A DNA stretch of 39,161 bases from an uncultured Rhodospirillaceae bacterium. Lineage in GTDB: Bacteria; Pseudomonadota; Alphaproteobacteria; CAYNIS01. The notes under the pieces were generated by a model that did not search any database, was not told the DNA's origin, and saw only the letters and a list, made by a program, of their open reading frames with translations. Shown here piece after piece: positions 22,448 to 39,161 of the stretch (positions within the stretch are counted from its first letter, which is position 1; each line of letters starts with the position of its first letter). Location: positions 1 through 39,161 of the forward strand of contig CAYNIS010000001.1 in assembly GCA_964397055.1 (NCBI GenBank), written 5' to 3'. Position numbers and translations under genes: made by a program.

Positions 22448-22471
22448 TCGGACCGCCGGTTCCGCTCGGAA

Positions 22472-22510: not shown

Positions 22511-22522
22511 CCTCCGAACGGT

Positions 22523-22771: not shown

Positions 22772-22786
22772 GGTCGAAAGTGTCCT

Positions 22787-22795
22787 AAAAAAAAA
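22787..22795. repeat. A9 homopolymer (T9 on the minus strand), 16 nt upstream of the small membrane gene start
   Basis: cctaaaaaaaaagtc; this is the only long homopolymer run I saw in the window. Confidence 0.9.
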
Positions 22796-23027
22796 GTCGG
22801 GTAGTCGGCAGGTCGGGTCCGGGGCGGCGACCGGCCGCCCGCAGGTTTCCGCACCTCGCCACAGCGCTCGTTAAGATTCGGCAAACGATATCCAGGCGAT
22901 TGTCCGTCTTCCGGTTGCGGCCGGACGCGGCCCCTTGCGCGCGGCTCCGGACCGTGATCTCAAGGCCCGGGAGGGTGCTGCCCCCGAACGAGTTGCCGCT
23001 GCCCGCGCTTTTCGCAGGACCGAGACG

Positions 23028-23708: not shown

Positions 23709-25551
23709 GGTCGGGCCGGGCAGCGGCCCCGACGGTGGGGTTGTCGCTTCCGCCGCGTCGACACCGTCCCCGGGCCACAACGAGGCCGGGGCGGAGGGTG
23801 TCGACGCCCGCGTGGTGTCGGTGCGCGACAGCCTGATCAAGCTCGAAAGCCTCGGCGGCCCGATCATGAAGAACGAGGTCGCGTACATCGCCGTCGGCGA
23901 GGAGCGGCTGAAGGCCGAGGTCCTGCGCGTCGAGGGGGCTCAGGCCGACGCCCAGGTGTTCGAGGATACGCGCGGCGTCTCGGTCGGCGACACCGTCGAC
24001 CTGACCGGGGAAATGCTGTCGGTGGCACTTGGCCCGGGCCTGCTCGGCCAGGTCTTCGACGGCCTCCAGAACCCGCTCCAGGTGCTCGCCCAGAACCACG
24101 GCTACTTCCTGCCGCGCGGCGTCTATGCGCCGCCGCTCGACCCGGCCCACAAATGGGCGTTCACGCCGGTCGTGCGCGTCGGCGACAGACTGGATGCCGG
24201 CGACGTGATCGGGACGGTCGCGGAAGGGCGCTTCACCCACAAGATCATGGTGCCGTTCGACGAGCCCGGCCCGGTCGAGATCACCTGGGTCCAGGCCGGC
24301 CCGGTGACGATCGAGGAGCCGGTCGCCCGCATCCTGGACAGTCGCGGCCACACGCGCACGCTGACCATGGTCCAGCGCTGGCCGGTGCGCCGGCCGCTGC
24401 CGGATGTGATGACCCGCCGGCGGCTGGCGGAGCGGCAATACCCGTCGAAGCCGCTGACCACGACGATTCGCCTGATCGACACCTTCTTCCCGATCGCCGA
24501 GGGCGGGACCGCCTGCATCCCGGGGCCGTTCGGCGCCGGCAAGACGGTCCTGCAGGGTCTGATCGCGCGCTATTCCTCCGCCGACATCGTCATCGTCGTG
24601 GCCTGCGGGGAACGTGCCGGCGAGGTCGTCGAGACCATCACCGAGTTCCCGCGCCTGGATGACCCGCGCACCGGCGGCACGCTGATGGACCGCACGATCA
24701 TCGTCTGCAACACCTCGGCGATGCCGGTCGCCGCGCGCGAGGCGTCGATCTACACCGGTGTCACCATCGGCGAATACTACCGCCAGATGGGCTACTCGGT
24801 GCTGCTCCTGGCCGACAGCACGTCGCGCTGGGCCCAGGCGATGCGCGAGACCTCCGGCCGCATGGAGGAAATCCCCGGCGAGGAGGCGTTCCCGGCCTAT
24901 CTCGACAGTGCCATCAAGAGCCTCTACGAGCGTGCCGGGGTGCTGAAGACCCGGGAGTCGACCGGCAGTCTCACCCTCATCGGGACGGTCTCGCCGGCCG
25001 GCGGCAATTTCGAGGAACCGGTGACCCAGTCGACGCTGGCGACGGTCAAGGCGTTCCTGGCCCTGTCCTACGACCGCGCCTACAAGCGCTTCTATCCGGC
25101 GATCGACCCCCTGATCTCCTGGTCGCGCTACCTCGAACAGCTCAAGCCGCATTTCGAGGCGGAGGTGGAGGACGGCTGGACCGATCGGGTGAAGCGCCTT
25201 GCCGGGCTCCTGCAGCAGGGTGACACGATCGGCCGCATGATGCAGGTGACGGGCGAGGAGGGCATCAGCCTGGAGGATTTCATCACCCTCCAGCGCGCGA
25301 CCCTGGTCGACATGGCGTTCCTGCAGCAGGACGCCTTCGACGCCGTGGATGCCACCGTGCCGATGGCACGCCAAAGGGAGATGCTGTTGCTGCTCGACGA
25401 GGTCCTGCAGCGCCCGTTGCCCTATGACGACAAGGATGCCGTCCGCGACGCGTTCACCCGTCTCACCAACCTTATGAAGAACCTGAACTATGCCGCCAGC
25501 GGCACCGGCGAGTACCAGGACCTGATCGGTCAGGTGAAGACCGTTTGGTGA
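23689..25551 (+). CDS. atpA: V/A-type ATPase catalytic subunit A
   Basis: Walker A IPGPFGAGKTVLQ, then LLLADSTSRWAQAMRE, and the typical N-terminal barrel LKAEVLRVEGAQADAQVFEDTRGVSVGD. The ATG at 23689 gives a ~38-aa low-complexity N-extension and a 20-nt overlap with the upstream gene. GTG at 23812 or 23815 are alternative starts. Confidence 0.9.
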   Translation: MSHTSPEVGPGSGPDGGVVASAASTPSPGHNEAGAEGVDARVVSVRDSLIKLESLGGPIMKNEVAYIAVGEERLKAEVLRVEGAQADAQVFEDTRGVSVGDTVDLTGEMLSVALGPGLLGQVFDGLQNPLQVLAQNHGYFLPRGVYAPPLDPAHKWAFTPVVRVGDRLDAGDVIGTVAEGRFTHKIMVPFDEPGPVEITWVQAGPVTIEEPVARILDSRGHTRTLTMVQRWPVRRPLPDVMTRRRLAERQYPSKPLTTTIRLIDTFFPIAEGGTACIPGPFGAGKTVLQGLIARYSSADIVIVVACGERAGEVVETITEFPRLDDPRTGGTLMDRTIIVCNTSAMPVAAREASIYTGVTIGEYYRQMGYSVLLLADSTSRWAQAMRETSGRMEEIPGEEAFPAYLDSAIKSLYERAGVLKTRESTGSLTLIGTVSPAGGNFEEPVTQSTLATVKAFLALSYDRAYKRFYPAIDPLISWSRYLEQLKPHFEAEVEDGWTDRVKRLAGLLQQGDTIGRMMQVTGEEGISLEDFITLQRATLVDMAFLQQDAFDAVDATVPMARQREMLLLLDEVLQRPLPYDDKDAVRDAFTRLTNLMKNLNYAASGTGEYQDLIGQVKTVW

Positions 25552-25578: not shown

Positions 25579-26475
25579 CTATTGCGCCGGTTCGGCCAGG
25601 CGCGCCTGCACTTCCGCGCATTCCGGCTGCGACAGCGAGCGGATGCACGGCCGGTCGATGGTGAAGAAGCCGCGACCCTGCGCATTGCGCGTGAAGGAGA
25701 TGCGGCTGACATAGGTCAACAGCGGCTCCGGCGAGGTCGTCAGTTCGATCCAGCGCTGGACCGGCATGTAGCGGGCCGCGATCTCGGTCCGGCTGCGGTC
25801 GGCGACACTCTGGTCGGAGAGATAGAAGACCAGGGTCGCGGCAAAGGCGATGATGCCGGCGGCGGCGAGGCCGATGCCGGCGTTCAGGATGGCCTCTCCC
25901 TTGTCGCGATAGGGGGCCATCGCTGCCCCGGCCACGCACTGGTGCTGGCGCTCGCCGGAGGCCGGCTGCCCCTCCGGCAGGACCACGCTGGAATAGGCCC
26001 CGCCGAAACTGCGCTTCACTTCCATGACCCGGCGCGTCATCGGCACCACGCAGACCACCTGCGGGTCGGCGTCGATCGCCTCCATCGCCGACTTGATGTA
26101 CGACTTGCCGGGGCCGCCCTCGTGCACCTCGAACAGCCAGCCGCCGTCGAACTTGCGGACATGCCACCAGCAGACGTCGTAGTTGGCGAAGCGCTGGTCG
26201 ATGAAGGCTTTGGCGAAGCTGACGGCGTCCTTGCGCTTGGTCGTGCCGTCGAGGAAGTCGATGACCGCGCGGTAGGGCTTCTCCTCGATCCCGCTGACCT
26301 GGTGGATGGCCGCCGCCTGGCGCATCTCGGCCGATGCGAGGACGTCGTGGCCGGTTTCCCCGGCGTCGGCCGCTTCGTCCGCGGTCTCGGCCGCGGCGGT
26401 CTCGAGCGGCACGGGCGGCTTGAAGCCACCTGTCTCGCGGTCGTCTCTGGGGCGTTTCCGCCGGCGCCAGAACAT
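25579..26475 (-). CDS. Bitopic inner-membrane protein (~195-aa cytoplasmic, 1 TM, ~80-aa periplasmic); possible GspL/BfpC-type assembly component
   Basis: 298 aa with a single hydrophobic helix, AILNAGIGLAAAGIIAFAATLVFYL, at about residues 196-219. It is the last gene of the secretin transcription unit. The functional analogy rests on topology and context only. Confidence 0.55.
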   Translation of the reverse strand: MFWRRRKRPRDDRETGGFKPPVPLETAAAETADEAADAGETGHDVLASAEMRQAAAIHQVSGIEEKPYRAVIDFLDGTTKRKDAVSFAKAFIDQRFANYDVCWWHVRKFDGGWLFEVHEGGPGKSYIKSAMEAIDADPQVVCVVPMTRRVMEVKRSFGGAYSSVVLPEGQPASGERQHQCVAGAAMAPYRDKGEAILNAGIGLAAAGIIAFAATLVFYLSDQSVADRSRTEIAARYMPVQRWIELTTSPEPLLTYVSRISFTRNAQGRGFFTIDRPCIRSLSQPECAEVQARLAEPAQ

Positions 26476-26556: not shown

Positions 26557-28278
26557 TTATTCTTCGGTGGTGTCGTCGGACCCGTCGAGGATCCCGGACA
26601 GGACCCGGCCGAAATAGCGGGCGCCCGGTGCCGCCGGTGGCGCTCCGGCCGCCGCCGCCGGACCCGGCTCGACACCAGGACCCCGATCCGACGGGCGGGT
26701 CGGCTGGGTCGGGTTCACCGGTGCCGGGTCCGCCCGCTCCGCGCGCGCGGCCTGCTCTGCGTTGGCCGCGTCGAGCTTGGCGATGCGGACGTCGTCATCC
26801 TCGTCGTCGATCAGCTCATAGACGGTGACCATCGGGCGCAGGATGATGAACAGGGAGGTGCGGCCGACCGACCGGTCCGACGCCCCGATCCGCCACAGTC
26901 CGAACGGCGCATTGCGTCCTTCGGAAATGGTGGTGGTCGACAGCCCGCCCAGGATCACGGTCTCGCCGGCCGGCACGCGGACCAGGTCGGTCAGGTTCTG
27001 GGTCAACGTCGACGGCGGTTCGCCGACGATTTCCGGCAGCGGGTTCTCGCTCTCCAGGGATTCGTTGTCGAGTTCAAGGTCGATGGTGACCAGTTCCGTA
27101 TCGGCATCGAAGCGCGGCGTCAGCGTGATCCTCAGGCTGACCGTGACCTCGTCGAACTCCGTGACGATATCGGTTCCCGAATCCTGACCGCGATCGACGA
27201 TGGTCTCGCGCACGATCGGGAAGGTGCGGCCGGATTCGATCGTCGCCTGTTGCCCGGAGAGCGTGCGCACCTCGATGTTCTGTTCGATGTCGGTCCGGCC
27301 GAACGACGACAGGAACTGGATCGCCCCGGTGACGTTGAGAGCGGCTTCGGTTCCGAAAAGGCCGACCCCGGACCGCAGCAGGTTGGTCAGGATCTGCTGG
27401 CTGTCGAGCTGGGTCAGCGTGCCGTCGCCGGCGCCGGTGATCTGGTTGCCGGTCTGGATGGTCGCGGCGAACTGGTCGAAATCGAACCCGCGCTGGTCGT
27501 TGTCGTCGAGGGTGACGGAGACGAGGGCCACCTGGATCGCGATTTCCGAGAAGTTCTCGCCCACCCGGCGCAGGTAGGGTCGGATGATCTCCTCGTTCTG
27601 GGGTGGGCGCGCGGAATAGTAGACGACCGAGCCGTTGACGCTTTCGACCAGGTCCTCGGCACCGAAACCGGCCAGTTCCTCCGCCACCTCTTTAAGTATT
27701 TCCGGGTTCTGCGGCAGGGTTACGAGGTATCGTTCCTGGGCCGACAGGAACAAGGCATCGGCGTCCCACCAGTAGGCTAGGCCCATCGTCTTGTTGAGCT
27801 TGGTCATGAGACCGCCGAGCGTGCCTTCGAACCGGCGGAACGGCACGGTCTGGTTGCGCAGGGCGAGGTCGTCTTCGGAATCGCCGGACAGGGTGTTGTT
27901 GCGGTCGAAGTGGAAGGCGACCGGAATGCCCTGGTCCTCGAGGATCAGCGTCAATTCGTCGAGGTCGATGCGTGCCGCGGGCAGGCGCAGGATGATTTCC
28001 TGCTCGGCGACGTCCGGCGGCAGTTCGCCGCGCACCCTCTGCACCACGAACAGGTCGGCCGGCAGCGGCACCCGTCGAAGGCCCGCCCGGGTCGAAAACT
28101 GTGCCGCGGTCTGCTCAAGGACGATCTCGGCACGCGGCGGCTCCTGGTCCGGCAGGGGCTCCGCACAGCCCGCCGCGACCAGACACAAGGCGATGCTAGT
28201 TCTGCGTGCAGCCGCCCATGCGCTGGAGAACCCCGCTGAAACGCAAGGCTGCCGCTTCGGGCACGATGAAGGGCTCAT
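26557..28278 (-). CDS. Secretin-family outer-membrane channel, probable lipoprotein
   Basis: The C-terminal region has secretin character (ALNVTGAIQFLSSFGRTDIEQNIEVRTLSGQQATIESG ... VPAGETVILGGLSTTT ... RTSLFIILRPMV). The N-terminus RRTSIALCLVAAGC|AEP is lipobox-like. The start is uncertain: the ATG at 28278 overlaps the upstream gene by 83 nt and the ATG at 28365 overlaps it by 170 nt. Confidence 0.7.
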   Translation of the reverse strand: MSPSSCPKRQPCVSAGFSSAWAAARRTSIALCLVAAGCAEPLPDQEPPRAEIVLEQTAAQFSTRAGLRRVPLPADLFVVQRVRGELPPDVAEQEIILRLPAARIDLDELTLILEDQGIPVAFHFDRNNTLSGDSEDDLALRNQTVPFRRFEGTLGGLMTKLNKTMGLAYWWDADALFLSAQERYLVTLPQNPEILKEVAEELAGFGAEDLVESVNGSVVYYSARPPQNEEIIRPYLRRVGENFSEIAIQVALVSVTLDDNDQRGFDFDQFAATIQTGNQITGAGDGTLTQLDSQQILTNLLRSGVGLFGTEAALNVTGAIQFLSSFGRTDIEQNIEVRTLSGQQATIESGRTFPIVRETIVDRGQDSGTDIVTEFDEVTVSLRITLTPRFDADTELVTIDLELDNESLESENPLPEIVGEPPSTLTQNLTDLVRVPAGETVILGGLSTTTISEGRNAPFGLWRIGASDRSVGRTSLFIILRPMVTVYELIDDEDDDVRIAKLDAANAEQAARAERADPAPVNPTQPTRPSDRGPGVEPGPAAAAGAPPAAPGARYFGRVLSGILDGSDDTTEE

Positions 28279-28750
28279 CAACCTCGGGATCGTAGAAGAG
28301 AACCTTGCCGTCGCCGACGCATCCCCGAAGAGTGGACAGAGAAAGCCGTTCCTCAAGACGCTCACGGCTCAACGCCTCCGCTCGGCTCAAGAGCTGCCCG
28401 CCTTCGGTTTCCAGACGACGAATGAGGTCCTGCTTAGCAGCGTCGACATCCCTGGACCAGGGCTTTTCCCCGGCAAGCCGACGGCGTTCGTCTATGGCGC
28501 GGCGGTCGATTGCTTGACGGACACGGGTCTCCATTTGGCGAATGCGGTTTTCGAGGCCGAGCAGTGCTTCGAGAACGCGGGCGGCGCGCTCCTCCTCTAT
28601 CTGGTCCTCGCTCGGGCCCTGGCTGATCGGCAGGGAAGCCCCCCGGACCGCATGGCCGGCGTCGGTCGTCGCCAGCGCCTGCGAGCCGATGACCGCGGCC
28701 ACGACCAGCGCCGCGACCGCCGCGAGCGACGTCGTTCCCGGCCGCGTCAT
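28196..28750 (-). CDS. Exported coiled-coil/Cys-pair protein, paralog B
   Basis: 184 aa from the ATG at 28750, with an ATGA overlap with the upstream paralog. It has a signal or anchor (SLAAVAALVVAAVIGSQALA), a charged helix, then RGCVGDGKVLF...MGGCTQN. Confidence 0.6.
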   Translation of the reverse strand: MTRPGTTSLAAVAALVVAAVIGSQALATTDAGHAVRGASLPISQGPSEDQIEEERAARVLEALLGLENRIRQMETRVRQAIDRRAIDERRRLAGEKPWSRDVDAAKQDLIRRLETEGGQLLSRAEALSRERLEERLSLSTLRGCVGDGKVLFYDPEVDEPFIVPEAAALRFSGVLQRMGGCTQN

Positions 28751-29394
28751 TGTCCGGTCCCGATGTAGCGGTCCACCGCATCGGCCGCCGCAGGCCGGGC
28801 AGCCGTGGCCTCGGCTTCGGCCGTCCGCCGCCTGCCGTTGCCGTCCTCGCAGCGGCCCAGGCGGCGCACGTCCTCGTTGACGAGGGCGGCTTCGCGGCCG
28901 TCGACGAAGAACACCTCCGACAGGTCGTTGGCGGCTTCCACCGTGAACATCGCCTGACCGTCGACACAGCCCCGGAACACGCCGACCGCGAGCCGCTCTG
29001 CCAGCGCCTCCCGGCGCCGGACCTCGACCGGGGTCAGAACCTCGCCCGTGGCAGAGGACATGCGCTCGATGATCTCGCTCGCGGTCTGGTCGATGTCCCG
29101 CATCCACGGGCGTTCGGAGCGCACGCGCTCGGCTTCCAGGCGCGCCCGTTCGTCGATCGCCGCGCGCAACGTCTCTTCCAGGCGACGCAGCCGTGCATCC
29201 AACTGAATGATCCGCACCAGAACCGGATCGTCCTTCGGGTCGAACGGGCGCGGATCGAACTGGGCATGGGCCGGCAGGCCGCCGAGGAAGGCCGCGGTCA
29301 TGGCGCCGAGAACGAACGCAACGATGGCGATCTTCGCCGTGCCCGAAGCATCGCGGATTCGGTGCGTTGGCAAGAAGGCATCGATCTTGAGCAT
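28747..29394 (-). CDS. Exported coiled-coil/Cys-pair protein, paralog A
   Basis: 215 aa with a signal or anchor (AKIAIVAFVLGAMTAAFLGGLPAHA|Q). By hand, about 40 % of ~83 ungapped positions are identical to paralog B, including EKPW/ERPW, RDxD and RGCV. Confidence 0.6.
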   Translation of the reverse strand: MLKIDAFLPTHRIRDASGTAKIAIVAFVLGAMTAAFLGGLPAHAQFDPRPFDPKDDPVLVRIIQLDARLRRLEETLRAAIDERARLEAERVRSERPWMRDIDQTASEIIERMSSATGEVLTPVEVRRREALAERLAVGVFRGCVDGQAMFTVEAANDLSEVFFVDGREAALVNEDVRRLGRCEDGNGRRRTAEAEATAARPAAADAVDRYIGTGQ

Positions 29395-29645: not shown

Positions 29646-30821
29646 ATGCCTGCCTTCATGGTCAGACTGCGCGCGGCCGGCCGGGTGAAAGAGCTCGAGC
29701 TCAACGCCCAGAACCCCGAGGTTGCCAAGCGGATGGCGCGCCGCTTCGGCTCCGTCATCTCGGTGAACAAGAAGGAACGCAAGCACACCGGCGGCGGCCT
29801 TCACCAGTCCGAGCGCTACATCTTCCTGTGGCGGGTCTCGACCATGCTCGCCTCCAAGGTCGGGACGACCGAAGCCCTGCGGCTCATTCGCGACAGTTTC
29901 TCGGGCCGGATCGGTGCCTGTGCCGCGGGTCTCCTGGAGCGTGTCGAGGCCGGGGCCGACCTGCCGACGGCGATTTCCGACGACACCCGCAACTTCCCGG
30001 GTGCGATCGGCATGATCATCAAGGTGGGCGCCCAGACCGGCCAGACCTGGCGGGCCCTGCAGCGCGCGGCGGAGTTCGAGCACAAGCTGCAGGAAGCCAA
30101 GAAGGGGTCGTCGAAGGGTATCGCGACCGCCGTCGCTTCCTTCGTTCTGGCCGCCTGCCTGATGATCTTCTCCTCCTTCTATATCGGGCCGAAGGTCGCT
30201 TCCATGCAGCTTGTCCAGGCCGGCGGCGGAACCCAGGTCCTCGCCATCTTCGACCAGGTGGCGTTCTGGGGCGGCACGGTGATGACCTTGTGCGTGGTCA
30301 TGCTGTTCGGCCTGATGTGGCTCGCCACCGTCGGGCGCCGGCTGATGCCGCTGGCGGCGGACGCGATCATCCTGCGCATCCCGTTCTACAGCGAACTGGT
30401 GCTGGCCCAGGACAACTACGTGAACATGCACCGCATGTCGCTTCTGGTCCGTTCCGGCGTGCGCATGGAAGACGCGCTGAAGACATCCTTCGAATCCTGC
30501 CGTCCCGGGCTGATCAAGGAGGATTTCCGGCGCGCACTCGATGCCATCCGGCTCGGCCGCAAATGGGCGGCGTCCATGCATCTCCTGCACCCGACCGATC
30601 GTGCCGCCCTGATGCTGGCGTCGGACCGCGATCAGATCGCCCAGAACCTCGACAACATCGGCTCCCAGTACGAGAGCATCTATATCGAGCGGGTGGCGAT
30701 GTTCACGCCGATCATGACGGTCGCGGCAGCGTTGTCGATCACGGTCGCGGGCCTGGTCCTGTTCGGCCAGGCGGTGCTGCCGATGCTCGAAGCTTCCGCC
30801 GGTATCCTTGCCCAGAATTGA
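29646..30821 (+). CDS. GspF/PilC-family inner-membrane platform protein
   Basis: 391 aa from the ATG at 29646. Two T2SSF-like repeats (EALRLIRDSFSGRIGACAAGLLERVEAGADLPTAI and MEDALKTSFESCRPGLIKEDFRRALDAIRLGRKWAASM) are each followed by TM segments. The N-terminus MPAFMVRLRAAGRVKELELNAQNPEVAKRMARRFG is PilC-like. Confidence 0.8.
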   Translation: MPAFMVRLRAAGRVKELELNAQNPEVAKRMARRFGSVISVNKKERKHTGGGLHQSERYIFLWRVSTMLASKVGTTEALRLIRDSFSGRIGACAAGLLERVEAGADLPTAISDDTRNFPGAIGMIIKVGAQTGQTWRALQRAAEFEHKLQEAKKGSSKGIATAVASFVLAACLMIFSSFYIGPKVASMQLVQAGGGTQVLAIFDQVAFWGGTVMTLCVVMLFGLMWLATVGRRLMPLAADAIILRIPFYSELVLAQDNYVNMHRMSLLVRSGVRMEDALKTSFESCRPGLIKEDFRRALDAIRLGRKWAASMHLLHPTDRAALMLASDRDQIAQNLDNIGSQYESIYIERVAMFTPIMTVAAALSITVAGLVLFGQAVLPMLEASAGILAQN

Positions 30822-31216: not shown

Positions 31217-31606
31217 GTGGCCTTGCTGGACGTATCGACGATGACCCGCGGCCAGGTGATGGCGATCGGGGGGACCCTGTCCGCGATCGGCGTCGTCCTT
31301 CTGATCGTTGCGATCGTGCTCGCGGTGTCGACCGTCCAGCGGCGGGCCGACGCGCGGGAGATCGCGAGGCTCGAGCTGCGCGCCTGCATGGGCCGCCTGA
31401 CCCAGGACCTGGGCTTTCAGACGCAGCCGCGCCAGGAGACGTCGATCATTGCCCGGAAGGAAGGCTACGGCGACACGGCCCTGCGCCTGGGCGAGGTGTC
31501 GTCGGCGGCGCTGCTCTGCCCGGGGTGGGTGATGACCAGCTTCTGCATGGGCACCGGTTGCAGCTATTCGGACGGGGCCGAACTGGTGCTGGAACAGGTC
31601 AAGTAG
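31217..31606 (+). CDS. Small Cys-containing membrane-anchored protein
   Basis: Good G/C-ending codon usage from 31241 onward. TM segment AIGGTLSAIGVVLLIVAIVLAV, with four Cys in the exported part (RACMG, LLCPG, FCMGTGCS). The start is either the GTG at 31217 (GGGAG 10 nt upstream) or the ATG at 31241. Confidence 0.55.
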   Translation: MALLDVSTMTRGQVMAIGGTLSAIGVVLLIVAIVLAVSTVQRRADAREIARLELRACMGRLTQDLGFQTQPRQETSIIARKEGYGDTALRLGEVSSAALLCPGWVMTSFCMGTGCSYSDGAELVLEQVK

Positions 31607-31674
31607 CGAATTAACCGCGTTTCAACCGGCCTTGATCGAGGCTGGATGCCGAAATCGGCCAACGGAGGTGGATC

Positions 31675-32646
31675 ATGGCCAACCTTATCGTCACGGTGAT
31701 TGCGATCGCCCTTGTCGCCGTCGCATCGTTGATGGGTGCCTATTACGGCGGTGCCGCCTTCCTCCAGGGGGCAGAGCGGGCCAACGCGGCCAGCCTGGTC
31801 GCCCAGGGTCAGCAGATGGCCGGCGCCTGGATCGTCGGGCGCAACCAGTATGTCGGGGCGCCCTGGGCGAACACCGCCAACCTGCGCATGCTGACCACGT
31901 TCACGCTGCTGTCGGACCTGCCGGCACCGCCGGCCGATGCCTCGCGCCGGCCGTTCTACGGTGTCTTCCGGTCGGGCAACCAGCGCCGGTACGCGGTCGC
32001 CGACCTCGGCCCCAACGCCTATGGGGTGTGCCTGCGCGTGGAGACCCAGAATTCCGACTCGCCCCTCTACGGCATGATCGAGAACTTCAACGGCGGCACG
32101 TTCGACTTCACCCAGAACGGGGAGCCGATCGCGGCACTGGAGTTCCTGGAGCAGGACGTCTTCCTCTACGAACGCGGCTACCACATGGACCGGACGGCGG
32201 GCTGGACCGGTGGCACCGGCTTCGGCGGCGGCACCTTCGCCCTCAACTCCCAGGCACCGACACCGGCGCTCTACTCTCCGGGGGCGGACTGCCAGCCGTC
32301 GAAGATCGACATCTCCGGCGGCACCCCGGCCTACGGGGTGGCCCGCTGCGACATCACCCCGCATGACCCGTTCGACGGCCGCTACGGCTGCTTCGCCCTT
32401 TTCTCCGGCAGGCCCGATGCCTACGCGAACGGCTACACGGTCAGCACCGACACCGAACCGATGCTGTTCATCAATGCCGGTGACAACATGACCTTCAACA
32501 CCGGTGCCGCCGCCGCCGGCCAGTTCGTCGACACTGCCGCCAACTGCGGGGCTGCCGTCGATGCGGCCGACGCCAACACCATCTGTGCCGAGGTTCCCGA
32601 CGGAGCCGAGGACATTAGCTTCATCTTCTACTATCAGCTGCAGTAG
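31675..32646 (+). CDS. Pilin-like protein without class III leader (candidate major filament subunit)
   Basis: GGAGG sits 7 nt upstream of the ATG, and an in-frame stop lies 14 codons upstream. The N-terminus MANLIVTVIAIALVAVASLMGAYYGG is pilin-alpha1-like. A C-terminal Cys pair 14 residues apart (NCGAAVDAADANTIC) resembles a pilin D-region. Confidence 0.55.
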   Translation: MANLIVTVIAIALVAVASLMGAYYGGAAFLQGAERANAASLVAQGQQMAGAWIVGRNQYVGAPWANTANLRMLTTFTLLSDLPAPPADASRRPFYGVFRSGNQRRYAVADLGPNAYGVCLRVETQNSDSPLYGMIENFNGGTFDFTQNGEPIAALEFLEQDVFLYERGYHMDRTAGWTGGTGFGGGTFALNSQAPTPALYSPGADCQPSKIDISGGTPAYGVARCDITPHDPFDGRYGCFALFSGRPDAYANGYTVSTDTEPMLFINAGDNMTFNTGAAAAGQFVDTAANCGAAVDAADANTICAEVPDGAEDISFIFYYQLQ

Positions 32647-32698: not shown

Positions 32699-32782
32699 AT
32701 GATCCGCTTCACCTTTAGCTTCGCCGCGACGCTGCTGGTCGCGATCGCCGCCTTCCTCGGCGCGCTCGCCGGTGTCGGGTGA
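32699..32782 (+). CDS. Possible 27-aa hydrophobic micropeptide
   Basis: MIRFTFSFAATLLVAIAAFLGALAGVG with G/C-ending codons but only a weak SD. This call is speculative. Confidence 0.25.
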   Translation: MIRFTFSFAATLLVAIAAFLGALAGVG

Positions 32783-32830
32783 CGCGTCGATGCAGGGTGA
32801 CGCGTCGATGCAGGGTGATGGGCCGATGCG
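32777..32830. repeat. 18-bp in-frame tandem repeat (2 perfect copies plus 1 degenerate)
   Basis: gggtgacgcgtcgatgca at 32777-32794 and 32795-32812, then gggtgatgggccgatgcg at 32813-32830. Each copy carries an in-frame ATG (GDASMQ GDASMQ GDGPMR). Confidence 0.85.
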
Positions 32831-33038
32831 CTGGGCGATCCGGGCGCTGGACTGGGCGGCGGCGGCTGGCTGCTTGGTCTGGGCCGCGAGGGTCTGGGAT
32901 CACGGGCTCGGCCCGGGCTCGGGCTGGGTGTGGCTTGCGGCAGGGCTGATCGGCTGTGTCCTCGCCGCGCTTGACGTGTCGCGGAGGGCCGAACGGGCGG
33001 TGTTCCGCGCCCTCCTGGTCAAGCGCCGCCGGACATAG
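32826..33038 (+). CDS. Small two-TM membrane protein
   Basis: MRWAIRALDWAAAAGCLVWAARVW...WVWLAAGLIGCVLAAL...RRAERAVFRALLVKRRRT. The start is ambiguous: GTG at 32772, or ATG at 32790, 32808 or 32826, all created by the 18-bp repeat. Confidence 0.45.
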   Translation: MRWAIRALDWAAAAGCLVWAARVWDHGLGPGSGWVWLAAGLIGCVLAALDVSRRAERAVFRALLVKRRRT

Positions 33039-33082: not shown

Positions 33083-34960
33083 ATGATCGCTGCCGTCATC
33101 TTCGCCGTCGTCGCCATCGGGCTCGCCAGTGCCGCCATGTACACGGTGCTGCAGGTCAACGAGGCCCAGCAGGCGACCGTCTACGGCGCGCGCAACTTCC
33201 AGAACATCGAACTCGCCGCGGCGATGCTGCGCGCCAACCTGCGCAGTGTCAGGTTCGACGGCAATCCCTACCCGCCGGCGGGGGCCCTCGACCCCACCTA
33301 CAACTACACGACGCTGCCGCCCTGGCTCGGCGCGCCGCGCTCCTCCATCGGTGTTCCCTTCCTCTACTGCCCCGTCGGTATCGCCAGCGCCGGGGCGTTT
33401 ACGCTCGGCGGCGACGAAAGTGCGGACACCGTCACCCTGGCCGACGGCTCCACCACCTATGACGTCGCGACCGTCACCGACGGCCGGACCAACGGGCAGG
33501 CGTACGTGACCCAGGCCGACGGCAGCTCGATCCCCGCGCTCTGGGTCGCCGGCGCGCCGGACGTCGTCGCGTTCCTGGTGGCGCCGACCTCGACCTCCAC
33601 CGACGTGCTGAGCTGCGACACGATCGACTGGGCGGCCGACCGCGGCCACTGGGTGCCGCACGTGGCCGATACCGGCGGCATCGTGCGCGCGATCCTGCGG
33701 GACGAGGCGGTCAGCCAGCGCTTCACGTCCGGGGTCGCGACCCCGGTGCTGTTCGCCGCCCCGACCGCGACCGGCGACGGCAGCGGGCGCGACGACACCA
33801 ACCGCATGACGCTCGCCGGTGCGATGAGCCTGTGGGCGGCCCTGCGCCCGCCCCTGATGCGCATCAGCCTGGGTGACGGCAGCTACACCGACGTCGATCT
33901 CGATCTCGCCCACCTGGACGACTCGACGGATGCCGGCTTCGATGACATCCACGACGGCAACGCCACCGGATCGAAGCTGGTCCTCGAAGGGCAGGGGGCC
34001 GCCACCACCCGGTTCACCGGCGGCATGACGGCCGTCGCCGTCCCGGCCGACCTGCATCTGGAGGATGTCGGCTTCACCGCGGCCATGCCGATCCGGGTCA
34101 TGCCCGGGCGCCGCCTCTATGCCAAGGACGTCGATATCGGGCGTCTGGAGGTCGACGGCGGCGAGGCCCGCCTCGCCGGGACCATCGATCTCGATGCTGG
34201 CTCTGTCACCGGTGCCATCAGCGTACTGAACGGCGGCCGGGTGCATTTGGTCACGCCGGAAAGCGGGGTGAACTCGACGGTCACCATCGACAATCCGGCC
34301 GGCGACATCATCCAGGTCGGTTCCGACGGCGAGATGACCCTGCGGGACACGGATATCGAGATCAGGATCACGGGCTTCGCTTTATCGCTGGCCCAGGTCT
34401 CCGGCCGTCTGACGGCGATCGACAGCACCATCACCGCACCGTTGAGCGGGCCCGTCGTCCATGGCCTGCACATGTTGAACGGCAGTCATGTCCGCCTGAC
34501 CAACGTCACCATCGGATCGGTCACCAGCCTGCCCAACTTCGCGGTCGTGGATGACGGGGCGCTCAGCATCTCAGGCACCGGCAGCACGGTCTACGGCACG
34601 ACCTGCTGGTTCACCACCCTGGGTGCCAATCTGTCGCCGACGCTGTTCGCCGCCTCCGAGATCGGGCCGCAACCGGTGTCATCGCAACCCGTGGCACCGG
34701 TACCGGGCGGCAGCGGGCTCACCCCACCAGCCCTGCCGCTGGTCGACAGACTAGACGTGGACAACGGCTTTTTGGGCGGCGACCCGGAAGTCGACGGCGA
34801 TGACAGTGCCAACCCCTACGACAACGTCCATGCGCCGGCCTATCGGACCGCTCTCCAGACCTATGTCGAAGACAGCATTGCCGCAGGCATCGCCGGCGAG
34901 GCCGCCTATCACGCCGTGCGCTTCACGAACCGTTCAGACTGGACGTGCCTTAATCTCTAG
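33083..34960 (+). CDS. Large pilin-like-anchored protein with a C-terminal right-handed beta-helix-like domain (candidate tip adhesin/enzyme)
   Basis: The N-terminus MIAAVIFAVVAIGLASAAMYTVLQ has no room for a leader (an in-frame stop lies 10 codons upstream). The mid-region FAAPTATGDGSGRDDTNRMTLAGAMSLWAAL...ISLGDGSY resembles the N-cap of pectate-lyase-fold proteins. Short strand-turn repeats follow (VTIDNPAGDIIQVGSDGEMTLRDTDIEIRITG...). Confidence 0.6.
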   Translation: MIAAVIFAVVAIGLASAAMYTVLQVNEAQQATVYGARNFQNIELAAAMLRANLRSVRFDGNPYPPAGALDPTYNYTTLPPWLGAPRSSIGVPFLYCPVGIASAGAFTLGGDESADTVTLADGSTTYDVATVTDGRTNGQAYVTQADGSSIPALWVAGAPDVVAFLVAPTSTSTDVLSCDTIDWAADRGHWVPHVADTGGIVRAILRDEAVSQRFTSGVATPVLFAAPTATGDGSGRDDTNRMTLAGAMSLWAALRPPLMRISLGDGSYTDVDLDLAHLDDSTDAGFDDIHDGNATGSKLVLEGQGAATTRFTGGMTAVAVPADLHLEDVGFTAAMPIRVMPGRRLYAKDVDIGRLEVDGGEARLAGTIDLDAGSVTGAISVLNGGRVHLVTPESGVNSTVTIDNPAGDIIQVGSDGEMTLRDTDIEIRITGFALSLAQVSGRLTAIDSTITAPLSGPVVHGLHMLNGSHVRLTNVTIGSVTSLPNFAVVDDGALSISGTGSTVYGTTCWFTTLGANLSPTLFAASEIGPQPVSSQPVAPVPGGSGLTPPALPLVDRLDVDNGFLGGDPEVDGDDSANPYDNVHAPAYRTALQTYVEDSIAAGIAGEAAYHAVRFTNRSDWTCLNL

Positions 34961-34994: not shown

Positions 34995-36848
34995 ATGCCC
35001 TCGCAGTTGATCGAAGAAATGAGCCTGGAGGAGGTCTCCCGCGAGATCGACAGCTTCGCCTCTCTCGAGGATCTGTCGAAGCGGCTCTCGGGCGAGCCGA
35101 CGGCGGAGGAGATCGCCCAGGTCGAGGAGGCGGTGAAGCCCAAGGTCGGCCGCATCGGCGACTATCTCGTCTCCCAGGGGCTGGTCGAGCGAGAGGCGGT
35201 CGAGGCCGCGGTGCGCGAATCCAAGGTTTCCGGCGAGCGCATCGGCAACATCCTGGTGCGCAACGGCTTCCTGCGCCACGCCGACCTGATCGACGCGATC
35301 CTCACCATCGCCCCCGACAACATCGCGTTCGAGAAGAACTTCACCGCGCGCATCCCGCGCGACCTCCTGGAACAGTATTCGATCGTCGTCATCGCCGACA
35401 CCAATGACGAGGTCTTCATCGCCACCCTGTCGCCGCAGGAAGCGGTCCACGCGATCGCCAAGCACTACTATCCGAACAAGGAGGTGCGCTTCGTCGGGCT
35501 GTCGCCGGCCGACCTCGCGAGCTTCATGGAATCGATCGGCCGGGAGGGCGAGGACCAGGACGCCGACGATGCCGAGGATGACGCCCTGGTCCTCGACATG
35601 ATCCTGAAACAGGCGCTCCTGATCGGCGCCTCCGACATCCACATCGAACCGCGCTACCGCTCCTACACGGTGTTCTATCGCCACCTCGGCATCCGCAAGA
35701 TCGCCCATGAGGGCTCGCTCGAGCAGTTCGCGATCATTGCCGCCCAGGTCAAGGACCGGGCGCGCATGGACCAGGTCGAAACCCGCATCCCCCAGGACGG
35801 CAGCTTTTCGATGGAATTCCGCAACCGCATCGTCGACATGCGTGTCGCGACCGTGCCGACCGTCAACGGCGAGATCGTCGTCATCCGCATGCTCGACCCC
35901 GACAAGGGCATGAAGACCCTGGTCGAACTCGGCATTTCGGAGGTTGAGGCGTGGCGCGGGGCGACCAACTATCCCTTCGGGCTGTGCCTGATCTGCGGCG
36001 CGACCGGTTCCGGCAAGACCACGACGCTGAATGCCACGGTCCGCGAGATGGACCGCTTCGGCAAGTCGATCCGCACGGTCGAGGACCCGGTCGAATACCG
36101 CATCCCCTATGTCGGCCAGGTGTCGATCAACCCCCTGGTCGGGCTCGACTTCACCATGGCGCTGCGCGCGTTCATGCGCGCCGACCCCGACGTCATCATC
36201 CTGGGGGAGGTGCGTGACACCAACACGGCCGCCCTGATGATGCGTGCCGCGGAAACCGGCCACCTGGTGCTGGCGACCCTGCACACCGGCTCGGTCCGGG
36301 GTGCCATCGGGCGGCTGCGCGGCCTGGAGGTGGCGGAAAGCGACATCCGCCCGCTTCTGCGCGGGGTCCTGGTTCAGCGTCTGGTGCGCACGGTCTGCAC
36401 CGCCTGCCAGGGCCAGGGCTGCCAGGCCTGCATGGACACCGGCTATGCCGGCCGGACCATCGTTTCCGAATGCGTCATGCTGAAGAACGAGCTGGAGGTC
36501 GACCGCGCCATGGCCGGCGAGCGCTGGTGGCCATCCATGGTGACCGACGCCCTGATCAAGATCCGCAAGGGGATCACGACGACCGAGGAGATCTACCGCG
36601 TCTTCCAGGCGGAGATCGAAAACCAGGACGAGGACCTGGACGGCATCGAGGAACTGATCGCCGCGGTCCAGGGCTTTAAGGAAGAGAAGCGCCAGAAGCT
36701 GATGTCCTCCCAGCGCCAGATCAAGCAGGAGATCGCGCGCCAGGAACAGGTGCGCGACGAACAGCGCCGCCTGATCCAGGAGGACCGCTCGCGCATGGTC
36801 AATTCCGACGTGACCATGTACACCGCCGTCCTCGCCAAGAACGGCTAG
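34995..36848 (+). CDS. GspE/PilB-family type IV filament assembly ATPase with an MshEN-like N-domain and a C-terminal charged extension
   Basis: Walker A CGATGSGKTTTLNA, Asp box/Walker B DPDVIILGEVRD, His box GHLVLATLHT, and the Cys cluster CTACQGQGCQAC. The N-terminal segment is RIGDYLVSQGLVEREAVEAAV...RIGNILVRNGFLRHADLIDAI. Confidence 0.9.
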   Translation: MPSQLIEEMSLEEVSREIDSFASLEDLSKRLSGEPTAEEIAQVEEAVKPKVGRIGDYLVSQGLVEREAVEAAVRESKVSGERIGNILVRNGFLRHADLIDAILTIAPDNIAFEKNFTARIPRDLLEQYSIVVIADTNDEVFIATLSPQEAVHAIAKHYYPNKEVRFVGLSPADLASFMESIGREGEDQDADDAEDDALVLDMILKQALLIGASDIHIEPRYRSYTVFYRHLGIRKIAHEGSLEQFAIIAAQVKDRARMDQVETRIPQDGSFSMEFRNRIVDMRVATVPTVNGEIVVIRMLDPDKGMKTLVELGISEVEAWRGATNYPFGLCLICGATGSGKTTTLNATVREMDRFGKSIRTVEDPVEYRIPYVGQVSINPLVGLDFTMALRAFMRADPDVIILGEVRDTNTAALMMRAAETGHLVLATLHTGSVRGAIGRLRGLEVAESDIRPLLRGVLVQRLVRTVCTACQGQGCQACMDTGYAGRTIVSECVMLKNELEVDRAMAGERWWPSMVTDALIKIRKGITTTEEIYRVFQAEIENQDEDLDGIEELIAAVQGFKEEKRQKLMSSQRQIKQEIARQEQVRDEQRRLIQEDRSRMVNSDVTMYTAVLAKNG

Positions 36849-36871: not shown

Positions 36872-37462
36872 GTGAGCCAGCTAGTCTTCGCGATGCTCGC
36901 GTTCTGCTTCATGGCCGTGTTGATGGCCGGCGGCGCCTATTACGTCGACCCGCACGCATTGGCGGTCATCGATCTCAAGAACTCGGCAGTGGCGGGCTTC
37001 ACCCAGCTCACCACCGGCTACCGCATGCACGTCATCAACCATCGCCGTCCGATCGATGTCGATGACCTCGCGACCCCCGACCTGATCGAATGGCACCCGC
37101 AGATCCGTTCCTTGACCCCGCTGCCCCGGCGCCCCGGGGATGGCGGGCTCGACTGGTCCTTCGGGCGTCCCGACCTGCGCCCGATCGGCAGCCCGGATGG
37201 CGTCGCCGACGGCGACTACTTCTGCCTTTCCGGGATGGTCGATGAGCACGAGTACCGCGCCCTGGCGCTGGCGGCGATCGGCCACGACCACGACACCGAC
37301 GGTATCGCGGACACCCCGCCCCTGCTGCCGCCCGGCATGACGGTGCTGTCGGACCTGCAGTGCGGCATCTATCAGGATGTCGATCCCGGCGGCGTCGACT
37401 TGACCGGGGCCTGGCCCAAGCAGGTCTATCTGACCGTCTGGGTGGTCAAGAACGGGCCCTGA
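36872..37462 (+). CDS. Pilin-like protein without class III leader (candidate minor subunit)
   Basis: GTG start 6 nt after GGGGAGG, with an in-frame TGA 7 codons upstream. The N-terminus MSQLVFAMLAFCFMAVLMAGGAYYVD shares the M-(A/S)-(N/Q)-L ... AV ... GAYY pattern with the protein at 31675. Confidence 0.55.
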   Translation: MSQLVFAMLAFCFMAVLMAGGAYYVDPHALAVIDLKNSAVAGFTQLTTGYRMHVINHRRPIDVDDLATPDLIEWHPQIRSLTPLPRRPGDGGLDWSFGRPDLRPIGSPDGVADGDYFCLSGMVDEHEYRALALAAIGHDHDTDGIADTPPLLPPGMTVLSDLQCGIYQDVDPGGVDLTGAWPKQVYLTVWVVKNGP

Positions 37463-37475
37463 CGGGTCCCGTCAG
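37459..37475. repeat. 17-bp perfect palindrome containing both convergent stop codons
   Basis: ctgacggg-t-cccgtcag. The TGA at 37460-37462 ends the plus gene, and the TCA at 37472-37474 is the stop of the minus pcm gene. Confidence 0.6.
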
Positions 37476-38233
37476 ATCCGCTGGCCGCCCTGCATGGGCG
37501 TGAAGCTGACCGGCATCAGCGACTGTTCGACAAGGCGCCCGTCGGCCTGTTTTCGAATCAGCGTCAGCACCTGCGCCCCGGGCCGGCCAAGCGGCAGGAC
37601 GAGGCGCCCGCCCGGCTTCAGCTGTCGTTCGAGCGGCGGCGGCACATGGTCGAGCGCCTCCTTGATCAGGATGACGTCGAACGGCCCGGCCTCCGGCCAG
37701 CCGAAATAGCCGTCGCCCTCGCGCAACGCGACCTCGTCATAGCCGAGGTCGGGCAGGAGCCGGCTGGCCACGTCGTGGAGTTCGCCGACCACCTCCATCG
37801 AGTGCACATCGGCCCCGAGTTCCGCCAGGATCGCCGCGTGATAGCCGGTATCGGTGCCCGTCTCGAACACCTTGTCGCCGGGCTCGACCTCCGCCACCTC
37901 GGTCATCAGGGCGGCCAGGAACGGCATCGTCAGGCTCTGGCCGAAGCCGAGCGGCAGCGGCCGGTTCAAATGCGCGAAGGGCTCCAACTGGGGCGGGACG
38001 AATCGCTCACGCGGAACCGTCCGGAACGCCTCCAGCACCCGCGGGCTGATCCGCCGGACGCCGGTGACGCCGGCCGTATCGCTGGCGTCCGCCTGGATTT
38101 CCCGGATCATGCGCTCGACCTCTGGCCGCCCGGGATCGCCGTGCCCCGGGGCCGCCGCGAGACCGACAGCCGCGGCCACGCCGATCGCGAGGGCCGCAAT
38201 CCTTGCGGCGATGCTCCGTTTCGCGCGCGCCAT
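37472..38233 (-). CDS. pcm: Protein-L-isoaspartate O-methyltransferase-like protein with an N-terminal signal peptide
   Basis: 253 aa from the ATG at 38233. Signal-like MARAKRSIAARIAALAIGVAAAVGLAAAPG, then PRERFVP, the SAM motif VFETGTDTGYHAAILAEL, and LKPGGRLVLPLG. Confidence 0.8.
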   Translation of the reverse strand: MARAKRSIAARIAALAIGVAAAVGLAAAPGHGDPGRPEVERMIREIQADASDTAGVTGVRRISPRVLEAFRTVPRERFVPPQLEPFAHLNRPLPLGFGQSLTMPFLAALMTEVAEVEPGDKVFETGTDTGYHAAILAELGADVHSMEVVGELHDVASRLLPDLGYDEVALREGDGYFGWPEAGPFDVILIKEALDHVPPPLERQLKPGGRLVLPLGRPGAQVLTLIRKQADGRLVEQSLMPVSFTPMQGGQRI

Positions 38234-38244
38234 GGCGACCCGCC

Positions 38245-39161
38245 CTAATCCTTGCCGAGAACCCGATCCAGGATAGCCTCGATGCGGGCGAGGTAGAAGC
38301 TGTGGTCGAAAAGACCGGTGAGTTCGCCGGCGTCGAGATGCGCCGTGATCACCGGATCCCGTGCCAGGTGGGCGAGGAAACGGGGGCGCCCCTCGATCTG
38401 TGGTGCGGCACCGGCGTCGATCTCCTGCCACACGGTCATCGCGTGCGACTGCACCAGCCGATACGCCTCTTCCCGCGCAACACCGGCCTGGGTCAGGGCG
38501 AGGAGCACCCGCTGCGACGCCACCAGGCCGCCCAGCCGGTCGAGGTTGCGGCGCATCTGGTCCGGGTAGACCAGAAGCTTGTCGACGACGTCCGCCAGGC
38601 GATTGAGCGCGAAGTCGAGGGCGATCGTGGCATCCGGTCCGATCAGCCGCTCCACCGAGGAGTGGGAGATGTCGCGCTCGTGCCACAGGGTGACGTTTTC
38701 CATCGCCGGCACCACCGCGGCCCGGACCAGGCGGGCGAGCCCCGTCAGGTTCTCGGTCAGGACCGGGTTGCGCTTGTGCGGCATCGCCGACGAGCCCTTC
38801 TGGCCCGGGCTGAAATACTCCTCCGCCTCGCGGACCTCGCTGCGCTGCAGGTGGCGGATCTCGGTCGCCAGGTTCTCGACAGAGCTCGCGACGACGCCGA
38901 GGACGGCGAAGAACTGGGCATGGCGATCGCGCGGGATGACCTGGGTCGACACCGGTTCCGCGGTGAGGCCCATCGCGCGGGCGACATGGGCCTCCACGGC
39001 CGGGTCGATGGTCGCGAAGGTGCCGACCGCGCCGGAGATGGCGCAGGTCGCGACCTCCTCCCGGGCTGCTTCCAGGCGGGCGCGATTGCGTTGGAAGGCG
39101 GCATGATGGCCGGCGAGCTTGAGCCCGAACGTGGTCGGCTCGGCATGGATGCCGTGGCTGC
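38245..39161 (-). CDS. purB: Adenylosuccinate lyase, 3' part (5' end off-window)
   Basis: The fumarate-lyase signature GSSAMPHKRNP is present. The frame stays open to the window edge (...HAEPTTFGLKLAGHHAAFQRNRARLEAAREEVATCAISGAVGTFATIDP...). Confidence 0.9.
   Translation of the reverse strand, partial: SHGIHAEPTTFGLKLAGHHAAFQRNRARLEAAREEVATCAISGAVGTFATIDPAVEAHVARAMGLTAEPVSTQVIPRDRHAQFFAVLGVVASSVENLATEIRHLQRSEVREAEEYFSPGQKGSSAMPHKRNPVLTENLTGLARLVRAAVVPAMENVTLWHERDISHSSVERLIGPDATIALDFALNRLADVVDKLLVYPDQMRRNLDRLGGLVASQRVLLALTQAGVAREEAYRLVQSHAMTVWQEIDAGAAPQIEGRPRFLAHLARDPVITAHLDAGELTGLFDHSFYLARIEAILDRVLGKD

Follow-up and report, generated by a model that had tools for sequence, protein, structure and literature searches.

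A probable type IV filament machine of uncultured Alphaproteobacteria whose candidate subunits are encoded without a leader peptide

A 39,161-nt contig of an uncultured Rhodospirillaceae bacterium (GenBank CAYNIS010000001.1; hereafter the window) carries, at 25.6-37.5 kb, a compact and conserved gene cluster of ~12 kb that we consider likely to encode a complete machine belonging to the type IV filament (T4F) superfamily, with subunits encoded without a leader peptide and without the glutamate at position 5 (Glu5). The parts of this machine are a lipoprotein secretin, a GspF-like platform, a GspE/MshE-like ATPase, four conserved proteins of unknown family and the leaderless subunits, here named c1, c2, and c3 (Table 1), among which c1 is the probable major pilin-like subunit. 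If true, the finding challenges the definition of type IV pilins by a class III signal peptide and by the prepilin peptidase as a universal part. The former is the distinctive feature shared by all T4F subunits, while the latter is one of the four universal parts of the machines that produce pili, type II secretion, competence pseudopili, and archaella (Berry and Pelicic 2015, PMC4471445). All evidence in this study is computational.

Because the window has a GC content of ~67%, raw lists of open reading frames (ORFs) are noisy, and a codon-position test was used in which third-position GC picks out the true reading frames; values of 0.85-0.98 back those of c1, c2, and c3. The c1 gene starts with an ATG at 31675, 5 nt after a Shine-Dalgarno (SD) sequence GGAGGT (31664-31669), and an in-frame TGA (31633-31635) located 13 sense codons before this ATG bounds any N-terminal extension. 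The c2 gene starts with an ATG at 33083, preceded by GAGGA at ~10 nt and by an in-frame stop, TAG, at 9 sense codons; c3 starts with a GTG at 36872 (read as Met), preceded by GGGAGG at ~7 nt and by an in-frame TGA at 6 sense codons. In none of the three is there an ATG, GTG, or TTG between the upstream stop and the start. Each protein opens straight into a hydrophobic helix (MANLIVTVIAIALVAVASLMGAYY in c1, MIAAVIFAVVAIGLASAAMY in c2, MSQLVFAMLAFCFMAVLMAGGAYY in c3), and all three display a common N-terminal pattern, M-x-x-(L/V)-(I/V)-(I/V/L)-(T/Y/F)-x-(I/L/V)-(I/A)-I..., followed by G-x-Y/W-Y. Lys or Arg ahead of the helix, a Gly(-1) site and Glu at position 5 are absent from c1, c2, and c3, as are acidic residues anywhere within residues 1-26.

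The leaderless start is a property of the family and no annotation accident, as can be seen when the related loci that carry family genes (L001-L026) are compared with the window. In 27 distinct c1-family genes, drawn from the window and 25 other loci, an in-frame stop lies 0-78 codons upstream of the Met (at most 41 codons in all but one gene, and at most 5 in 12 of them), and 23 of the 27 have no ATG, GTG, or TTG in between. The same holds for the c2-type genes, all eight of which have an in-frame stop 0-25 codons upstream and no alternative start. Because upstream stops recur across the family, longer c1-family precursors are excluded. A first-pass annotation of this DNA had proposed leaderless hydrophobic starts at the three ORFs, with no basic leader ending in Gly(-1), no Glu at +5 and no positive charge before the helix. 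The start sites, reading frames, upstream stops and N-termini described above bear this out, and the longer precursors with a class III signal that it had named as the alternative are not found, stops lying upstream across the c1 family.

The c1 protein is a member of a large, unannotated family for which no Pfam or NCBIfam model exists. Residues 1-26 of c1 (31675-31752) form a near-invariant hydrophobic helix, MANLIVTVIAIALVAVASLMGAYYGG, for which the family pattern is MANLIITVIAIALVAVA.LMGAYYGG. A word-seeded search returned 130 homologs of c1, almost all of 177-230 aa and all named hypothetical, in none of which a Pfam domain was found. At residue 1, 118 of the 120 listed homologs open with M[A/S]NL[I/V]ITVI(A/S)IALVA(V/I)A(A/S)LMGAYYGG, beyond which they diverge rapidly. 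An exhaustive hidden Markov model (HMM) search of 1.84 billion representative sequences with the c1 family detected 1861 proteins at E<=1e-3, of which 1036 reach E<=1e-10, and 147 of the best 150 matches align from their own residue 1. M1, N3, L4, T7, I11, L13, A15, M20, A22, Y23, G25, and G26 are invariant in the family, residues 2-22 are hydrophobic and carry no charge, and Asn3 and Thr7, both invariant, provide the sole polar side chains of the helix. This helix is the most conserved part of the proteins, while their C-termini are hypervariable. Outside it, a cysteine pair stands out (C119/C239 in c1, C131/C171 in P0009, a typical member), one Cys being invariant and the other present in at least 90% of members, and the two would form a disulfide bond. 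In c1, these cysteines flank a lineage-specific insertion of ~120 residues.

At the nucleotide level, the first 78 nt of c1-family genes have a third-codon identity of just 0.42-0.46, both within and between genomes, while the encoded peptide is near invariant; purifying selection therefore acts on the amino acids, including the initial Met-Ala-Asn. Two other causes of the invariant N terminus were considered and rejected: gene conversion between paralogs, with third-codon identity at ~0.45 within and between genomes alike, and a nucleic-acid element, with third codon positions scrambled. An invariant helix followed by a variable remainder is the opposite of what cleavable signal peptides and simple membrane anchors display, and is the hallmark of the α1N helix of pilins.

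Among GTDB species representatives, the c1 family occurs in only about ten metagenome-assembled genomes (MAGs), nearly all labeled as uncultured Alphaproteobacteria or Rhodospirillales, and copy number varies, with at least 12 copies in one fragmented MAG (UBA11073) and at least three on a closed 1.93-Mb chromosome (OZ251979.1). The genes in UBA11073, a Rhodospirillaceae MAG (L006, L008, L010, L012, L016-L022), have identical N-termini followed by unrelated C-terminal domains, an expansion that recalls antigenic or functional variation. The copies on OZ251979.1 are dispersed orphans (L001/L014, 10001-10585; L026, 10001-10702), one of which lies inside a flagellar export cluster, between flgB/flgC/fliE/fliQ/fliR/flhB and fliP, and another amid the housekeeping genes dnaX, ybaB, xth, mrp, and thiE. 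Three members (P0066 and P0072 of ~390 aa, P0213 of 375 aa) have the same N terminus and about twice the usual length, which suggests modular versions with an extra C-terminal domain, as with the insertion between the cysteines of c1. One family gene (L023, 796-936) is on a 24.7-kb contig labeled Abditibacterium sp., a non-proteobacterial phylum, where mis-binning or horizontal transfer is possible. On a 1.79-Mb MAG contig, a short T2SSE-family ATPase of 314 aa (L013, 11168-12112; Pfam T2SSE 1e-21) is encoded downstream of an orphan family gene, at a distance of ~600 nt; it might serve for retraction or as a second motor and is without equivalent in the window.

To what extent does c1 resemble a pilin in three dimensions? 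Structures of c1 and of P0009 were modeled with AlphaFold2 on the family alignment and compared with the PDB using Foldseek. The P0009 model (mean pLDDT 90.5, pTM 0.84) exhibits a long helix (residues 2-58) and a short one (69-74), followed by two strands (97-100 and 106-114), a helix (126-139) and two further strands (169-174 and 192-198). The c1 model displays the same order of elements, with a mean pLDDT of 80-96 per 10-residue block over residues 1-130 and two low-confidence insertions between the conserved cysteines. For both models, the top Foldseek match is the type IV pilin PilA1 of Clostridioides difficile (6t8s), a weak match (probability 0.66-0.93, E 0.07-0.15, target-normalized TM score 0.46-0.55) with no other coherent match beside it. 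At the sequence level, the family profile has four matches among all PDB sequences, the top three of which are GspG pseudopilins, again weak (E 0.6-2), with profile positions 30-88 aligning in register to GspG 25-95 over α1C and the following loop. Moreover, hhalign of the family against four GspG sequences gives P = 1.4e-4 and a probability of 53% over 59 columns, which we count as supporting evidence only; the PulG segment used agrees with the PDB alignment. None of 116 members scanned against Pfam matches a pilin family at E<=1, the scan yielding no more than scattered noise, curated pilin models (N_methyl/TIGR02532, T2SSG, Pilin) do not recognize these proteins, and c1, c2, and c3 have no family match at E<=0.1 in our scans of Pfam and NCBIfam models, the latter with equivalog cut-offs applied. 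The signals for c1 are weak, yet they are independent and all appear to converge on one fold family, that of pilins and pseudopilins.

The genes around the subunits are those of a T4F machine. The ATPase has a predicted tandem MshEN-type motif for binding cyclic di-GMP (residues 53-102), which scores above cut-off with two models (45.7 vs 38 bits for NF053729, 24.2 vs 23.1 for PF05157), and the enzyme probably responds to cyclic di-GMP. For the platform protein, the ORF is open from 29433 and the start was placed at 29646 after the ortholog in L015. The secretin likely starts at 28278; its best NCBIfam match is MshL, far under the cut-off, and it has orthologs at the same position in L007 and L015. 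No known family or PDB sequence relative was found for the accessory genes at 25579-26475, 28196-29394, 31241-31606, and 32826-33038, and no homologs of PilM/N/O/P or GspC/L/M were recognized by the Pfam and NCBIfam scans. Cluster order is kept in L002/L003, L007, L009, L015, and L024, with ATPases 69-72% identical to that of the window. It runs from a 299-aa protein (-), the lipoprotein secretin (-) and a small exported protein (-) to GspF and the Cys-motif transmembrane protein, and on to one to three genes with the MANLI start, the small transmembrane protein, one or two c2-like genes, sometimes a divergent MSNLIVSVIAIALVAA gene, and the ATPase.

A few local features of these clusters deserve mention. 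In the window, a purely hydrophobic 27-codon ORF (MIRFTFSFAATLLVAIAAFLGALAGVG, 32699-32782) separates c1 from the gene of the small membrane protein; this ORF shows raised third-position GC, has no counterpart at that place in L015 and may be spurious. In L015 (MAG GWF2_58_20), rpmB, encoding ribosomal protein L28, sits inside the cluster (7653-7946), between the secretin-side genes and gspF. In two clusters, a GNAT acetyltransferase gene follows the ATPase, either adjacent to it (L009, 15497-15916) or with two genes between (L002, 17066-17509), where the window has c3; that GNAT might modify subunit N-termini is pure speculation.

As for the other two leaderless proteins, c2 has an N-terminal module of ~200 aa, with an invariant Y-C-P motif (C96) and a second invariant Cys (C178), and a long, beta-rich and repetitive C-terminal region; it may be a modular minor pilin or a tip adhesin. 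The start shared by all eight c2-like genes reads M(I/V)(S/T/A)(L/V/I/A)(V/M)(I/L)(Y/F)..(I/V)AI(G/A/S)LA..A.Y. The c3 protein, a candidate small minor subunit, has a full-length homolog (E = 8e-12) encoded directly after the ATPase in L015 (17453-17956), which starts MAHLIVTLLAIALAAFVMASGVWY with the ATPase stop codon immediately adjacent; the other related clusters have no counterpart. Word-seeded searches with c2 and c3 returned only near-identical copies of themselves, and relatives were found solely through synteny in the related loci. The c1-family HMM detects neither protein, just 13 hydrophobic residues align when c2 and c1 are compared by hhalign, and neither c2 nor its family profile has a meaningful sequence relative in the PDB. 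Because homology beyond the N-terminal pattern is undetectable, that c2 and c3 are minor subunits is something we infer from the leaderless N terminus, the position in the cluster and the conserved cysteines, and we would give this shared role roughly even chances.

If subunits have no leader, is there a peptidase? No Peptidase_A24 was found by the Pfam and NCBIfam scans among the real genes of the whole 39-kb window, and none by tblastn with PilD, a supporting test only, in the 26 related loci (~370 kb). A weak PilD match in L026 was discarded, as it lies inside a NuoM-like gene. The first-pass annotation had already noted that the locus lacks a peptidase gene, which agrees with both searches. 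It had also read the three proteins as candidate filament subunits that resemble already-mature pilins. For c1 this is supported by fold, family and context, and every proposed check that was run agrees with it: the long α1 of the "lollipop" fold that it had suggested looking for is predicted, followed by a four-stranded sheet, if with weak matches to pilins, and the pilin-like character is further seen in the near-invariant helix, the variable C terminus, the cysteine pair and the place between the GspF-like and GspE-like genes near the secretin. For c2 and c3, the leaderless part of the claim holds, while their pilin nature is suggested by N terminus, position and cysteines.

How might such a machine work? 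Translation would begin at the hydrophobic α1N helix itself, which the signal recognition particle and Sec/YidC would insert as an N-in, C-out anchor, a presumed topology. The globular domain would fold in the periplasm, where the disulfide would form, and because there is no leader, a prepilin peptidase step would be unnecessary. The ATPase and the platform would then pull subunits from the membrane and stack them via their invariant N-terminal helices, and the filament would exit via the secretin. The contact that Glu5 makes with the N-terminal amine would be replaced, the candidates being the invariant Asn3 and Thr7, which are one helical turn apart; alternatively, it might be unnecessary if the N terminus is uncharged. 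Given what methionine aminopeptidase generally accepts, c1 (Ala2) and c3 (Ser2) would lose Met1, which c2 (Ile2) would probably keep. The hypervariable paralogs may supply alternative surfaces. Our results proper are the start sites, the family with its pattern of conservation, the predicted fold, the gene neighborhood and the lack of an A24 peptidase gene on the contig; we infer, in this scheme, the membrane topology, the assembly of filaments, the independence from a peptidase and the roles of Asn3/Thr7 and of c2 and c3.

Several points weigh against this reading. Pilins are matched weakly, both by structure and by profile (Foldseek E ~0.08, hmmsearch E 0.6-2, hhalign 53%), no Pfam or NCBIfam pilin model recognizes any family member, and no homology of c2 and c3 to c1 or to known pilins could be detected. 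The uncharged N-terminal flank gives the helix no obvious topology determinant. With no PilM/N/O/P or GspC/L/M homologs recognized, the machine is just partly understood, and other parts of the genome could encode a prepilin peptidase or some different processing enzyme, though there is no leader for it to remove. Finally, filament formation, export and the mature N terminus are predictions from sequence alone.

The explanation that competes best, which we nonetheless consider unlikely, is that the subunits are leaderless pseudopilins of a type II secretion-like machine, in which a short periplasmic piston, not a surface pilus, pushes cargo through the secretin. This would keep the finding of leaderless subunits and differ in the output of the machine alone. 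It can point to GspG pseudopilins as the sole sequence-profile matches, to GspE as the best solved-structure match of the ATPase and to the absence of a PilT-type retraction ATPase from the cluster. However, GspC, GspL, and GspM were not recognized, the secretin is nearest to MshL and the ATPase has an MshEN domain, as in pilus systems, while at least 12 hypervariable paralogs in one genome and an adhesin-like c2 are more typical of surface filaments. The many hypervariable paralogs and the large c2 proteins favor a surface pilus or adhesin over a periplasmic pseudopilus.

Somewhat less probable still is that c1-c3 are inner-membrane proteins with a signal anchor and a periplasmic domain, either accessory or alignment parts of the machine or unrelated to it, that never polymerize. 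Proteins in which a periplasmic domain follows an N-terminal transmembrane helix are common, every link to pilins is statistically weak, and c2 and c3 are without any. Yet anchors are normally poorly conserved, whereas here 26 residues are near invariant over more than 1000 sequence clusters, and remain so despite saturated synonymous sites and hypervariable ectodomains. Moreover, the genes occur in tandem and as dispersed multi-copy paralogs, and pilins are what the cysteine pair, the predicted fold and the location between the genes of platform and ATPase fit.

It is very improbable that c1-c3 are soluble proteins, periplasmic or secreted, with cleavable Sec (class I) signal peptides as their hydrophobic N-termini. 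Signal peptidase I might in principle cleave at the small residues after the hydrophobic part (VAVA|S, MGA|Y), but a positively charged n-region is absent, and the hydrophobic run exceeds 20 residues within a single helix predicted to extend to residue 58 with pLDDT >90. Furthermore, signal peptides are among the least conserved parts of proteins, and this segment, Met-Ala-Asn included, is the most conserved of the family. As for canonical prepilins whose start codons have been mis-called downstream of a class III leader, gene callers can misplace starts in high-GC DNA and a CTG, the sole near-cognate codon between the TGA at 31633 and the c1 ATG, lies 11 codons upstream of 31675, but this is effectively excluded by the upstream stops counted above in c1- and c2-type genes and found immediately adjacent to the c3-type gene of L015, by the strong SD sequences before the called starts and by the peptide that the CTG would encode (LDAEIGQRRWI), which does not end in Gly.

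The remainder of the contig, as listed in part in Table 1, contains a V/A-type ATPase operon and genes for an RND efflux pump, an MFS transporter, TauD, an M20 peptidase, an acyl-CoA dehydrogenase, toxin-antitoxin-like proteins, a protein-L-isoaspartate O-methyltransferase (PCMT), and adenylosuccinate lyase. The V/A-type ATPase genes (16301-25551) are split in two divergent blocks with the gene of the TauD dioxygenase (21587-22447) between them. L007 shares the neighboring V-ATPase A gene with the window, and there too the DUF2764 and A-subunit genes adjoin the filament cluster. Near the V-ATPase block are genes for DUF5615 and PIN-domain (toxin-antitoxin-like) proteins and an HNH-motif protein (10323-10895, 12873-13283, 15495-16286), signs of mobile or defense-type genes. 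The ORF of the PCMT (37472-38686) is open for 404 codons, only the last ~240 of which match PCMT, and its Arg/Pro/Gly-rich N-terminal stretch is probably untranslated because a signal-like segment starts near residue 163.

Table 1. Genes of the filament cluster and of the neighboring V/A-type ATPase operon in the window
Feature	Coordinates	Strand	Basis
c1, leaderless pilin-like protein, 323 aa, probable major subunit	31675-32646	+	Family alignment, AlphaFold, start sites
c2, large leaderless protein, 625 aa (MIAAVIFAVVAIGLASAAMY...)	33083-34960	+	Start site, synteny, family alignment
c3, third leaderless class, 196 aa, GTG start (MSQLVFAMLAFCFMAVLMAGGAYY...)	36872-37462	+	Start site, L015 homolog
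Assembly ATPase, GspE/PilB/MshE class	34995-36848	+	T2SSE 1.1e-86; GspE structure 4pht 5e-71
GspF/PilC-like polytopic platform, two T2SSF domains	29646-30821	+	PF00482 1e-18, two stretches; GspF model 1.3e-15
Outer-membrane secretin, probable lipoprotein, lipobox LVAAG|C	26557-28365	-	PF00263 7.9e-16
Single-pass membrane protein, periplasmic Cys-rich motif CPGW..FCMG.GC	31241-31606	+	Always directly upstream of pilin-like gene
Small membrane protein, ~70 aa, ORF open from 32772	32826-33038	+	Between c1 and c2; position kept in L002 and L015
Small exported protein, C-terminal Cys pair, upstream of secretin	28747-29394	-	Paralog of 28196-28750 gene; equivalent in L015
Second small exported paralog (MTRPGTTSLAAVAALVV...)	28196-28750	-	Paralogy with 28747-29394 gene
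Conserved 298-aa protein: cytoplasmic domain (EVHEGG, VPM.RR), one transmembrane segment, short periplasmic tail	25579-26475	-	Adjoins secretin in window, L007, L015
V/A-ATPase E/B-like subunit	16301-17017	-	Minus-strand block
V/A-ATPase subunit I	17451-19277	-	Minus-strand block
V/A-ATPase subunit D	19292-19972	-	Minus-strand block
V/A-ATPase subunit B	19998-21410	-	Minus-strand block
DUF2764 protein	22935-23708	+	Plus-strand block
V/A-ATPase subunit A	23629-25551	+	Plus-strand block

Beyond the window, we see about an even chance that a lineage of T4F machines in uncultured Alphaproteobacteria has dispensed with both the class III leader and the prepilin peptidase, making three classes of subunits in mature form, inserting them by an uncharged helix and replacing Glu5 by Asn3/Thr7. 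If subunits without a leader do form filaments, then T4F assembly does not depend mechanistically on leader cleavage, N-methylation or the Glu5 salt bridge, and a large family that never had a leader would be a natural experiment on the purpose of each of these features, bearing also on how a membrane protein is oriented without a charged flank and on what a minimal machine is. These proteins escape PilFind-type and N_methyl-type rules as well as every curated model, so that similar systems may be systematically overlooked in metagenomes. The ~12-kb cluster is small enough for heterologous reconstitution, which provides an experimental handle.

Among known systems, the machine is nearest to the MSH and type II secretion system (T2SS) branch, yet its proteins score below every equivalog cut-off (MshL 61/250, PilB 295/676, GspE 291/630, all far below) and the accessory genes of that branch are missing. 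Like the MSHA system (MshE, MshL, MshG), it has an ATPase with tandem MshEN, a secretin whose best match is MshL and no retraction ATPase. However, MSHA pilins, with their canonical leaders and Glu5, require a PilD-type peptidase, whereas the subunits in the window show neither leader nor Glu5, and in place of the accessory proteins MshI, J, K, M, and N, which were not recognized in the window, there are four unrelated conserved proteins. The T2SS differs in its GspC/L/M and its leadered GspG-K pseudopilins, not recognized in the window either, and the similarity between c1 and GspG is weak. The reduced GspD/E/F/G-type machine of the mitochondrial T2SS (miT2SS) is likewise without an identifiable GspO prepilin peptidase (Horvathova et al. 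2021, PMC8134430). Its GspG keeps a polar anchor, Glu+5 and the features of a processing site, and its processing is ascribed to another protease (PMC8134430), unlike c1, in which there is nothing to process. A link to the miT2SS was dropped on the grounds that its GspG retains the anchor and Glu+5.

Archaeal type IV pilins and archaellins are often without Glu5 (PMC4471445), which is therefore dispensable for assembly in this superfamily. Unlike c1, they still carry a class III leader, cleaved by PibD/FlaK-type peptidases, and unlike the machine in the window, theirs lack secretins and use FlaI/FlaJ-type components. We found no description of leaderless or peptidase-independent pilins in the literature, of which our coverage is incomplete, so that an earlier description is possible. 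A filament subunit made without a signal or leader does exist in filamentous phage, where the major coat protein of Pf3 enters the inner membrane by means of its hydrophobic helix, after which a machine driven by an ATPase extrudes it through a secretin. The likeness is one of mode of operation only, for the Pf3 coat is an unrelated protein of ~44 aa, N-out/C-in, YidC-dependent and devoid of a globular domain, and its machine is unrelated too.

The closest comparison remains that with type IV pilins and pseudopilins themselves (PilA, PilE, GspG, MshA). As in these proteins, a hydrophobic helix of ~25 residues is the most conserved part of c1-family members and the globular domain is variable, the predicted fold has a long α1 and then a four-stranded sheet, if with weak structural matches, there is a cysteine pair, several paralogs occur per genome, and the genes are found with those of a GspE/PilB ATPase, a GspF/PilC platform and a secretin. 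With GspG, the family shares a weak but specific profile similarity in α1C and the α-β-loop region. In contrast to type IV pilins, the family has no hydrophilic leader (typically ~6-26 residues), no Gly(-1) and no Glu5, with Asn3 and Thr7 invariant instead, matches no curated model and has no prepilin peptidase gene nearby. The c1-family proteins would work like pilins yet fall outside the pilin family as now defined.

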